Positions 39,045-61,210 of a DNA stretch of 64,000 bases are shown piece after piece; the stretch's first letter is position 1, and every line of letters begins with the position of its first letter. The notes under the pieces were generated by a model that worked only from the letters and a program-made list of their open reading frames with translations, was not told the origin of the DNA and searched no databases. Source of the stretch: Carcharhinus amblyrhynchos (Eukaryota). The translations under genes were made by a program, and so were the position numbers. The stretch covers positions 53,630,001 to 53,694,000 of the forward strand of contig OZ336874.1 of the NCBI GenBank assembly GCA_965287045.1. The letters run 5' to 3'.

Positions 39045-40125
39045 TAAGAACATAAGAAATAGGAGGAGTAGGCCATCTAGCCCTTCGAGCCTGCCCCGCC
39101 ATTCAATAAGATCATGGCTGATCTGAGGTGGATCAGTTCCATTTTCCCACCCTCTCCCCATAACCCTTAATTCCCTTGTCTATCAAAAACCTATCTACCC
39201 GTGACTTAAATATATTTTGCGAGGCAGCCTCCACCACTTCAACAGGCAGAGAATTCCAGAGATTCACCACCATTTGAGTGAAGAAGTTCCTCCTCAACTC
39301 TGATCTAAACTGCACCCCCCCCCCCCCCCCTTATCTTGAGGCTGTGCCCTCTAGTCCTGCTATCCTTTCTAAGCAGGAAGAATCTCTCTACCTCTACCCT
39401 ATCCATCCCTTTCATTATCTTATACATCTCTATAAGATCCCCCCTCATCCTTCTAAACTCCAACGAGTACAAACCCAGTCTATTTAGTCTCTCTTCATAG
39501 TCCAACCCACTCATCTCTGGTATCAGCTTAGTGAACCTCCTCTGCACTCCCTCCAAGGTCAATATATCCTTCCGCAAGTACGGTGACCAAAACTGCACAC
39601 ACTACTCCAGCTGCGGCCTCACCAGTGCCCTGTACAGTTGCAGCAAGACCTCCCTGCTTTTATATTCTATCCCCCTCGCTATAAAGGCCAGCGTACCATT
39701 TGCCTTCTTGATCACCTGCTGCACCTGCACACTGGGTTTTTGTGACTAATGCACAAGGACCCCCAGGTCCCTCTGCACCATAGCATGCTGCAGCTTTTTG
39801 CCCTTTAAATAGTAATCCCTCCTACTTTTATTTCTGCCAAAGTGGATAACACCAGGTTTTAGTCCAACCTATTTATTTGATAATATACTCGCGAGTATAT
39901 TATCAAATAAATAGGTTGGACTAAAACCTGGTGTTGTCAGACTTTTTACTGTGTTTACGCCAGTCCAACGCCGGCATACCCACAAAGTGGATAACCTCAT
40001 ACTTGCTAACATTATACTCCATCTGCCAGGTCCTTGCCCACTCGCTCAGCCTATCCAGATCCCTCTGCAGACTTTCCACACACTCCGTGCAATTTGCTTT
40101 TCCACTCATCTTCGTATCATTGTAA
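39045..40125 (-). mobile_element. Young CR1-like LINE 3' part, interrupted by the insertion at 39851-39982
   Basis: QFWSPYLRKDILTLEGVQRRFTKLIPEMSGLDYEERLNRLGLYSLEFRRMRGDL and LQRDLDRLSEWARTWQMEYNVSK; closely similar to the 17165-17620 copy in opposite orientation. Confidence 0.93.
39838..39995 (+). mobile_element. Penelope-like fold-back mini-insertion with an 88-bp perfect palindrome and 13-bp target-site duplication
   Basis: Palindrome 39848-39935; CAAAGTGGATAAC repeated at 39838-39850 and 39983-39995; tail shared with the elements at about 45126 and 60872. Confidence 0.8.
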
Positions 40126-44673: not shown

Positions 44674-44892
<219 letters not shown>

Positions 44893-45125
44893 TAAAATAA
44901 GTTATCTCTTCAGTCTTGTACATATCTAAGTAATGCCATGTGCTATGATACCATGAAAAGAGGAGTAATTTATCTCCAGGTGTGTCCCACAGATTATTAT
45001 TGCTTTGTTTTAAGATTAAATCATAAATTATATTGTAATGGTTCCCCCTCAAGCTATGTGGATAATGGTTTTACAGAGTAAAACAAAGGGGATAGCTGGC
45101 TTTGTCTTTCCCTCTCTCAATAAAG

Positions 45126-45540
45126 ACAGTAATAAGTCTCACAGCACCAGATTAAAGTCCAACAGGTTTATTTGGTAGCACAAACCAGAAGCTTTCGGAG
45201 CACTGCTCCTTCATCAGGTGAGTGGGAGTTGCGTTCACAAACAGGACATATATAGGCACAAACTCAATTTGCAAGATAAAGGTTGAAATGCCAGCCTTTA
45301 CAAGACTAAACAAGACTTGTACAAGACTTTACAAGACTCGCATTCCAACCATTATCTTGTAAATTGAGTTTGTGCCTATATATGCCCTGTTTGTGGACAC
45401 AACTCCCACTCACCTGATGAAGGGGCGGTGCTCCGAAAGCTTGTGGCTTATGCTACCAAATAAACCTGTTGGACTTTAACCTGGTGTTGTGAGACTTCTT
45501 ACAGTGCTTACCGCAGTCCAAAGCTGGCATCTCCACATCA
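45126..45540 (+). mobile_element. Penelope-like fold-back element (inverted arms of about 165 bp) with hammerhead motifs
   Basis: Arms at about 45127-45291 and 45340-45505; unique tail to 45540; flanks TCAATAAAG (45117-45125) and TCAACAAAG (45541-45549). Confidence 0.82.
45411..45445 (+). ncRNA. Putative minimal type I hammerhead ribozyme motif (Penelope-associated)
   Basis: CAC CTGATGA A GGGGC GGT GCTCC GAA AGCT T GTG: stem I, core, stem II, GAA, palindromic AGCT stem III, cleavage nucleotide. Activity untested. Confidence 0.6.
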
Positions 45541-45938
45541 TCAACAAAGTTAACCAGTGGAATCAGACTGTAGCATTCTGAATTCCTACTGCTAGCAGCA
45601 GTGCATTCATTTTGTTGTCCAACTGGTTAGGAAACACTCTGCTGAGTTTTTGATTTTCCAAAGTTTAGCAAAAATACTTGAGTAAAATATTTTTAAAAGC
45701 TGCCCTGAAACTGTCACTAGAGATAGTGAATGTGACCCAAAAATGCCAGCAGAACACATTACTTGCAATGTTTCATTCAGCTATTGGATTACTTGAACAG
45801 CTCACTGGAATAGTTTAAAATGCAATCACTTAACTAATATTTTTTCAGGAAAGGGAATTACATGGGATGCTTTCAGAGGTTAGTACTTATTGATCACAGT
45901 ACTTGCTTTGATTATTGTTGCCTTTAACAGAATATTAT

Positions 45939-46143
45939 GGTCGGAATTCTCCAGCCATTCACGCCAGTGGGATTCTCCGGTCTTAGCGGCAGCACACCCT
46001 CATCCAAGGGTTTCCTGCTGGCGTGAGGTGGCATCAGTGGGAATTCCTATCAACAGCAGTGGGACCAGAGAATCCCCCACTAACAAACAACACGCCACCT
46101 TCCACCTTCAGGGAACACTCGGCTGGGAGGCTGAGTCTTGCCC
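45939..46143. mobile_element. MITE-like element
   Basis: GGTCGGAATTCTCC start; internal GGGATTCTC/GAGAATCCC inverted motifs; inverted homolog at 46690-46886. Confidence 0.65.
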
Positions 46144-46689
46144 TGTCTCTTTTTAATTTGCCTACCTGAGTTAAAATCTGAAACTGACAGAATTAAAAAT
46201 AAATAAGCTTGCATTGTCAAAAATCATCTGGTTCTCAAAAGTATAAAGGAACATTTTTCCTCTGCTTCCTTCTCTCCTTTTAGACATTTTTTACATTAAA
46301 CTGACAGATATTTAACTTGAATTACAGAGCAACAATATCCATGAATTTTCCAGCATTTATACCAGCAAATCAGACACCCATATTTTGCAAGCAAACTGGT
46401 AAACCTAATTGCTGATGGGTCTAGTGTTTTGCCACCAAAGCAAGGGAGGAAGATTTACTAGTGTTAACAATGGAAGCCTTATCATGGTCACAAATCTCTC
46501 TGATTTAGACCTGAACACATGGCATTTTAACTACCTCTCAAAAGAATTATGAAGTTGATTTCCAATTAAATTGAGTCATCTGTGAACTGCAGCTTTTTTG
46601 ACCTTTTGTAGCAGTACTTTGATTACCTCTGGAGTAGACCAAGGTGTATTGTCATGGGTTTGCTAGCACTGGTTATCCTGAACTACTCA

Positions 46690-46886
46690 GCAGGATTCTC
46701 TGGCCTCCCCTCAGCGTTTTCCTCAGCTGAGTGCCGTTCGCTGGTGGTGGGATCCCCTGGTCCTGCTGCTGTCTGTGGGAATTCCCATTGAAGCTACTGA
46801 ACGTTGCCAGGAAACCTGCCATGGAACATGCGCCATCAGCAAGACCAGAGAATCCTGCCAGCTTGAACAGCTAGAGAATTCTGGCC
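46690..46886. mobile_element. MITE-like element, inverted relative to the 45939 copy
   Basis: Ends GCAGGATTCTCTGG ... AGAGAATTCTGGCC; interior is reverse-complement-similar to 45939-46143. Confidence 0.65.
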
Positions 46887-47995
46887 ACTATCACCAAGGA
46901 AATGTACTTTGTTTGATCAGTGAAATATACATCACAGTCTCAGATTGCATTGGGCATTTTGTGTAATTGTGTATTGCTCATTAAACCTATAGCACTGGCA
47001 GTTCAGTTGCTAATTCAAAATGTAATCCTCACGCAAATTAATCCCAAATTTGAAATCTAAATGCATTTAATTTCCTGACCTTAAAAACTTGGTAAGCCAA
47101 AAAATGTACAAATGTTACAGAGAACTAAAATAGGACTAAGTGCTAATAGAATAAATGGCCTTAATCTTTTTTGCAAATGATTAAGTTTAATGTCACTACT
47201 ATTACAACAGCAACTTTCATTTATACAGCACCTATAGCATAGAGAAATGTCTCTAAGTACTTATTCTTAATACTTAAATATTAAGGAATCCCAGCGGATC
47301 TCCGGACCGAAGGCCAGAGAATGGGGTGGAACCTGGTTCATCTGAGATTCCGTCCCATATTTCAGGTATGGGAGGCTATGGGAAAATGTTCAATCCACGT
47401 CCACCCCACATCCCCCCCACATCATTGGGGTGTGAGTGGGAGAATTCCTGGACAACTAAGAGTTGGTGTGAGGTTTTGAAGCCTTCAAAAAGGCACCAAA
47501 TCCTTACCAAGCAAAGGTATTCCATCGTAATTCAAGGGTTCCTTTAGAAGTGGAGAGTTTTAAATGCTTTTTTAATTTTTGAACCCTAAGAGAGCCTTAA
47601 ACATAATCTAGCAGAGTGTCTTTTGATCAATCTGCTGCTAAATCAGGTTAGACTCTACCAGTATGCCCATGGATGCCAGTGGCTTGCCCTGTATATGCTG
47701 ATGACTTTGTCCCTGCAATGTGAGATGAGGTTGAGAGCATTAGCACAAATACAGCTTCCCCAGCCATACTTCTGTCAGTGAAGCAAACCAATTGGAATTT
47801 TGATCCCTGGGGACTTTATTGGATTTTGGACCAAGCATTCCAAGCACTTCATGGAATTAAATGCAGATGAAAAATATTTTGTGATATTTGTTTATTCAGT
47901 TCACTGATGTAGCATATTGGTAATATTAGTTACTTCATCAGAACTGCTTTAATAATAAGTTTTAATTCCGCATTTAAGATACGTGTTAAATTTAG

Positions 47996-48136
<141 letters not shown>

Positions 48137-60640: not shown

Positions 60641-61210
60641 TACCACAGAATCCCTACAGTGCAGAAAGTGGCCATTTGACCCACTAAATCTGCACTAACT
60701 CTCCAAAAGAGCAACCTACCCAGGCTCTCTCCTCTGTGCTATTTCCTTAATCTCACGCATTTACCATCACTAAAACATCTAATTTACACATCTTTGAACA
60801 CTAACAGGCAATTCAGCATGGCCAATTCACCTAATCTGCATATCTTTGGACATCTGGGAGAAAATTGGAGCCATGATGTGGATATGCCAGCGTTGGACTG
60901 GGGTAAACACAGTAAAAAGTCTGACAACACCAGGTTTTAGTCCAACTGATTTATTTGATAGTAAGCTCACTAGCTTTCGAGGGGATTCCCAGGTGAAGAA
61001 GAGGGAATCCCCTCGAAAGCTAGTGAGTTTATCAAATAAATCGGTTGGACTAAAACCTGTTGTTGCTAGAAAATTGGAACACCAGAGGAAATCCATGTTG
61101 ACACAGAGAATATGCAAATTCCACACAACACAGTTACCTAGGCTGGAATCAAACCTGGGTCCTTAGTACTGCTGCCTCACAGTGCTAACTACTGTGCCAC
61201 CATGTTGCCC
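60641..61210 (-). mobile_element. Full-length tRNA-head V-domain SINE (HE1-like), interrupted by a Penelope-like insertion
   Basis: - strand starts GGGCAACATGGTGGCACAGTAGTTAGCACTG (A box) .. GGACCCAGGTTTGATTCC (B box); tail CAGAATCCCTACAGTGCAGAAAGTGGCCATT on the + strand. Confidence 0.85.
60859..61078 (-). mobile_element. Penelope-like fold-back mini-insertion with apparent 11-bp target-site duplication
   Basis: Inverted arms at about 60925-60990 and 61003-61065; AGAAAATTGGA at 60859-60869 and 61068-61078; same subfamily as the 39838 element. Confidence 0.8.

Follow-up and report, generated by a model that had tools for sequence, protein, structure and literature searches.

Endonuclease (EN)-bearing Penelope-like elements (PLEs) leave insertion units (Pen2a_Av, PMC3846280; Fig. 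2 legend, PMC8557442) that contain a head-to-head inverted 5'-truncated copy, with a tail of 30-40 nt on one end and a target-site duplication (TSD) of ~9 bp around the unit. A rotifer PLE is described with this layout, its tail being 31 bp and its TSD 9 bp, and self-priming is proposed for it (PMC3846280); for an anole PLE, two internal start sites of reverse transcription (RT) which bound the tail are shown in vitro (PMC11167929). Metazoan PLEs also carry minimal hammerhead ribozymes that combine CUGANGA and GAAA boxes with an extra nucleotide between 9 and 10.1, a G10.1-C11.1 pair, a palindromic 15.2-16.2 and a short stem I (PMC4209133). Monomer cleavage by these minimal hammerheads is undetectable and dimer cleavage low (PMC4209133); the anole PLE hammerhead cuts only with PLE protein, with no reads ending at the site (PMC11167929). 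Opposite-strand hammerhead pairs lying 100-700 bp apart have already been reported from Schistosoma mansoni (PMC4209133).

The insert described here lies in intron 10 of PTCH1, within a window of 64,000 nucleotides (the whole stretch of DNA that was analysed), and resembles these units in its head-to-head inverted 5'-truncated copy, its one-sided tail and the candidate TSD around it. It differs from Pen2a_Av-type units in being without an ORF and consisting of two ends of ~180-210 nt only. We are highly confident that the feature is the 5'-truncated head-to-head double end of a high-copy PLE, likely the product of one old insertion and likely in neutral decay, whose hammerhead is the element's own pLTR motif and likely does not cut PTCH1 pre-mRNA. 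As such it is an ordinary remnant, and searches of the literature listed no paper on this particular family. The features, in window coordinates, are as follows.

44704..44859, + strand: PTCH1 exon 10, matching PTCH1 aa 450-501
44860..48022, + strand: PTCH1 intron 10 (GT..AG), from the exon map
45117..45125, + strand: candidate TSD, left copy; 9 nt that differ from the right copy at 1 position, with a score equal to the threshold
45126..45302, - strand: left arm; 3' end (pLTR) of a Penelope-like element without a tail, in antisense orientation relative to PTCH1
45186..45220, - strand: minimal hammerhead of the left arm; stem II GGAGC/GCTCC, stem I weakened (G>C at the first pair)
45303..45332, strand not applicable: inversion junction; reiterated 8-nt units of element sequence, 4 copies over 45299-45338
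45333..45541, + strand: right arm; 3' end (pLTR) with the tail attached, in PTCH1 sense orientation; 90% identity to the end of the RT-bearing copy L043
45411..45445, + strand: minimal type I hammerhead of the right arm; predicted cut 45442/45443, 4-nt palindromic stem III
45459..45464, + strand: AATAAA polyadenylation-like hexamer of the element end
45503..45541, + strand: one-sided PLE tail of ~39 nt, which in an intact relative ends on the ORF start codon
45541..45549, + strand: candidate TSD, right copy; its first base is also the last of the tail

The exon map comes from TIGR00918, with the start codon placed by motif and the small exon 4 by reading; the exon at 44704-44859 is number 10 on this map, so that the insert sits in intron 10 (44860-48022), as an earlier note on this DNA had it. 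Self-comparison of the window returns an inverted repeat (45121-45307 against 45324-45510; 187 nt, 88% identity), and alignment to a natural reference copy sets the arms at 45126-45302 (-) and 45333-45541 (+, with tail), their length being ~180 nt and their similarity to each other 87-90%. The fold-back of the note is there, with arms a little longer (~180 nt) than the ~165 bp it had given them. The tail sits on the right arm, the candidate TSD matches at 8 of 9 positions, and no empty site was seen for this insertion. Folded as a 425-nt RNA, the fold-back reaches -280.6 kcal/mol (z -31.7; 0 of 100 shuffles equally stable), and in the pre-mRNA its arms are predicted to zip into a ~180-bp duplex. 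Head-to-tail tandem units with hammerheads, the retrozyme layout, are absent at the site, which holds an inverted pair only, and a non-LTR retrozyme was rejected as a reading on that ground. On the PTCH1 strand the antisense arm contains AG/GTGAGT (window 45216-45223), a strong 5' splice-site consensus that is the complement of hammerhead stem I and is predicted to be buried in the duplex. Downstream, at a distance of 400 nt (window 45912-46160), there is a different high-copy repeat that has short inverted repeats.

The Penelope-like origin proposed in the note is supported by relatives in which RT and GIY-YIG-type coding sequence precedes this 3' end. Two of them (L043, L046), ~90% identical to the arm, run contiguously 2.2 kb upstream into broken RT and endonuclease-like frames (RVT_1 E 5e-8); a related subfamily whose end is ~75% identical is represented by L049, with an open frame of 931 aa (L049:2909-5704, - strand; RVT_1 E 5e-10). 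A PLE-type RT, with DKG motif and RT core, thereby lies within one ORF ahead of this 3' end, and the order in the L049 frame is DKG, YIDD, CX4CxxC (aa 793) and then NIVYLIRC..GC..WYIGET. Read from motifs only, the C-terminus of L049 is of GIY-YIG type (NIVYLIRCKKGCPEAWYIGET plus two downstream EH motifs), an endonuclease with CCHH; the Pfam GIY-YIG domain has no match in L043/L046 or L049, and a PDB search with the L043 RT gave nothing below E 0.5. The CX2-5CxxC linker between RT and EN, present in L049, is common to Neptune and Nematis, and L049 further resembles the Neptune/Nematis-type ORF, as set out in PMC8557442, in its DKG, its RT core and its C-terminal GIY-YIG-type domain with two Cys between motifs, a likeness of motifs. 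L049 has pLTR sequence both before and after the ORF: its final 52 nt, together with the tail, stand ahead of the Met, and the hammerhead-bearing pLTR follows the stop. Its tail ends at the start codon, whereas in Pen2a_Av and the anole element the tail lies inside the ORF. Because the relatives continue into PLE coding features, each arm at PTCH1, though itself free of an ORF, can be assigned as the 3' end (pLTR) of a PLE, joined head to head to the other.

The family is abundant. A 31-nt hammerhead pattern has 2754 exact matches (reversed control, 0), a similarity search gave 6310 first-look candidates of which 40 were scored, and the sampled introns (1.25 Mb) contain 56 insertions, or ~1 per 22 kb, which would extrapolate to ~130,000 copies genome-wide if the sampled intronic density holds. 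The PTCH1 remnant as found thus matters little, being one of many thousands of Penelope remnants. The open frame of L049 and the 99-100% identical arms of L050, L054, L055 and L056 suggest recently active subfamilies.

As to how such fold-backs arise, we compared 72 head-to-head inserts with near-complete outer ends, which come from a first intronic sample plus similarity-picked loci and so are not an unbiased set. In 65 of the 72 just one arm carries the tail (both arms do in 1, neither does in 6), and a flanking direct repeat (score at least 6) surrounds 50 of the 72, against a mean of 3.5 (maximum 6) in 30 shuffled pairings; an inverted 5'-truncated copy, a one-sided tail and a TSD are found together, as in described PLE units. 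Rare alleles common to both arms average 1.88 in 41 pairs as opposed to 0.31 in random pairs, and the arms of young inserts are 99-100% identical. Since tail, TSD, shared rare alleles and near-identical young arms all point the same way, the whole fold-back is likely to stem from a single template and a single insertion event. Derived changes show no asymmetry between the tail arm and the tail-less arm (276 vs 294 in 39 pairs, p=0.48). The 5' breakpoints lie ~30 to >2000 nt away from the end of the element, the centre is a different one in every aligned copy and junctions differ from copy to copy. We infer that the element's endonuclease nicked both target strands and that reverse transcription started at two internal sites (the tail end and the tail start), giving two short cDNA arms from one template; template switches at short repeats then linked the two by their 5' ends. 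The four 8-nt units at the PTCH1 junction would be compatible with repeated slippage rather than prove it. These units (45299-45338) also resemble short direct repeats that the element has immediately upstream, and may reflect repeated priming or slippage in template switching. For the unsolved mechanism of PLE insertion these data are of modest value, in that they offer a fold-back within one TSD, one arm start per internal site and a common template. In two further cases (C7 sample 39447-39575; C11 sample 279499-279621) the second arm consists of tail only and does not duplicate the first, which looks like inversion without duplication.

The hammerhead of the right arm (CAC-CTGATGA-A-GGGGC-GGT-GCTCC-GAA-AGCT-T-GTG) lies exactly where the earlier note had put it (45411-45445, predicted cut 45442/45443), and its boxes and stems are those of a minimal type I hammerhead with palindromic stem III. 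The left-arm motif (45186-45220, - strand), too, has the GGAGC/GCTCC stem II described there and a stem I weakened by one change (G>C, first pair). Catalytic boxes, extra nucleotide 9/10.1, G10.1-C11.1, palindromic stem III and H17 are all present at the right arm, which thereby shares the hallmarks of metazoan PLE hammerheads including the short stem I (PMC4209133); stem II has 4-6 bp in the family of the PTCH1 element vs 7-8 bp in schistosome families (PMC4209133). The note had listed an extra A after the core and a weak CUU triplet as caveats. Both are indeed there; the extra A is known from the literature as a hallmark of PLE hammerheads, and CUU is the commonest triplet (52/108) among the sampled family motifs. 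In that sample, 108 motifs located by a core-box anchor and partly from pattern-picked loci, the base after GCT at the cut site is T in 52, A in 26, C in 20 and G in 2 (A, C or T together, 98), stem II has at least 4 bp in 92 and a G..C pair closes it in 88. Among 18 hand-picked variants, whose relatedness was not controlled, all five stem II pairs have two-sided changes (5/5), and stem II covariation is 0.359 vs 0.204 (0 of 500 shuffles), the 5' side of stem I being fixed by the search anchor. These motif statistics, together with compensatory changes in stem II, suggest that the hammerhead is likely under selection in the source elements. A gathering scan of the window with Rfam gave 0 matches, which is neutral evidence, as motifs this small would be expected to fall short of the cut-offs.

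What the motif does within PTCH1 is another matter. Without the left arm, folding predicts a stem I pair probability of 0.06 in a 48-mer and ~0 in longer contexts; with the left arm, the mean paired probability of the motif is predicted at 0.97. The lone PTCH1 motif is thus predicted to fold poorly and its active monomer fold to be rare even when the left arm is removed, and by these predictions and by analogy with published PLE hammerheads it probably leaves PTCH1 pre-mRNA uncut. The duplex would then add, incidentally, a second lock to a motif which, as a monomer and without PLE protein, is already close to inert.

Concerning age, contigs of three other organisms enter the element from both flanks before they end inside the repeat, so the insert predates the split from these organisms, whose left flanks differ by 1-12 in ~760 letters (~0.1-1.6%). 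The PTCH1 arms are 90% identical and have 14 private rare changes and 1 shared rare allele. The insertion is hence old and likely decaying neutrally. Against this reading, derived changes number 4 in the sense arm vs 13 in the antisense arm (binomial p=0.049, uncorrected); by reading, 5 of the 17 arm-to-arm differences occupy the 35 nt closest to the junction.

The earlier note had offered a reason why the motif is tolerated, namely that the complementary arm, being upstream and transcribed first, sequesters it and that a self-cleaving sequence may for this reason persist in a dosage-sensitive gene. In its stronger form, sense hammerheads would harm pre-mRNAs and selection would keep arm-locked copies, especially in genes like PTCH1, and the duplex is predicted to be highly stable (paired probability 0.97). 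The long duplex stands as a prediction; its role as the reason for tolerance is not supported. In introns of nine genes (1.25 Mb; strand taken from Pfam/NCBIfam exon matches and checked by YWTD-like motifs; two references), 39 of 56 insertions are head-to-head fold-backs, 8 are sense-only and 9 antisense-only. The fold-back is the default insertion form in the sampled introns, and the strand bias that shielding would predict is not seen there. Hammerhead regions without a covering arm are sense in 14 cases and antisense in 13 (p=1.0; 95% CI of the sense share 0.32-0.71), and strict motifs are unshielded in 3/13 sense vs 3/12 antisense copies, although in this sample, which may include nested genes and consists mostly of genes not known as dosage-sensitive, only a depletion of more than ~twofold is detectable. 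Sense-strand minimal hammerheads in introns are thus tolerated even when unshielded. In favour of shielding, the four insertions found in PTCH1 are all fold-backs (4/4), which is unremarkable at a base rate of 70%. The share of fold-backs is also higher in introns (39/56) than among pattern-picked C1 copies, where an adjacent partner was found in 17/40 and the motif was covered in 12/40 (5-kb windows, interrupted partners not counted), but ascertainment differed, the 40 copies being among the first 100 listed of 2754 with gene context not known. A non-target background has 12/21 fold-backs, a count contaminated by distant partner arms of targeted inserts. Moreover, the arrangement at PTCH1 needs no selection, because any fold-back puts an antisense arm first on either strand, and published minimal PLE hammerheads are inactive alone (PMC4209133, PMC11167929). 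We hence regard selection for arm-locked copies as improbable.

Rather than being merely tolerated, the element might have been exapted, its hairpin or motif tuning PTCH1 processing as a substrate for A-to-I editing, through cleavage conditional on PLE protein or by an effect on splicing or polyadenylation. That three related organisms have the insertion in common, and that the sense arm is less changed than the antisense arm (4 vs 13), could be taken in favour; sharing is, however, expected of any older insertion between relatives that differ by just ~0.1-1.6% in the left flank, and the arms have diverged by 10% with only 1 shared rare allele. Amniote intronic hammerheads have a canonical fold. 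The domesticated examples (RECK and others) in PMC6155905 resemble the PTCH1 motif in being of type I, on the sense strand of a vertebrate intron and probably retroelement-derived, but they are highly conserved across amniotes, whereas at PTCH1 we see a minimal motif in a decaying high-copy repeat that recurs every ~22 kb. Exaptation in any of these forms is in our view very improbable, and we give just as little credence to its specific variant in which the sense motif would be a latent, protein-switched ribozyme under weak selection, arm-locked and cutting PTCH1 pre-mRNA when PLE protein is expressed. Were this so, it would link retroelement activity to Hedgehog dosage and open a new route from retroelement expression to the dosage of a developmental gene, to which thousands of intronic copies could respond likewise. 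Hardest of all to credit is a non-autonomous element of MITE-like kind, mobile as an invariant palindrome of 400 bp. Fold-backs of similar size are indeed numerous among the best matches and target duplications do flank the whole unit, but matches of similar size were selected by the query, the tail is on one arm only, and with centres particular to every aligned copy and breakpoints from ~30 to >2000 nt from the element end there is no uniform internal sequence or size, and a MITE was rejected on this ground.

Beyond the insert at intron 10, three further head-to-head remnants of this family are found in PTCH1 introns (window 39848-39984 and 60873-61065, and the L198 region at ~72.9-73.5 kb in extended window coordinates), and in none of them does the strict test find an intact sense motif. 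A 5816-nt contig of run X1, a run whose type is only guessed as RNA, matches exon 10 alone with 0 differences, as a spliced message would, a pattern that says nothing on levels or junctions. The TIGR00918 search also found a paralogous PTCH1 locus on C9. An open frame of 998 aa spans two PTCH1 exon matches (G000:C5:53683576-53686464) and one of 1042 aa occurs at the C9 paralogue, which may be artefacts of hit-joining. Two more Patched-family matches (G000:C2:116196527-116198056 and 116301042-116302619), with open frames of 569 and 634 aa, lie ~100 kb apart and are apparently intron-poor.
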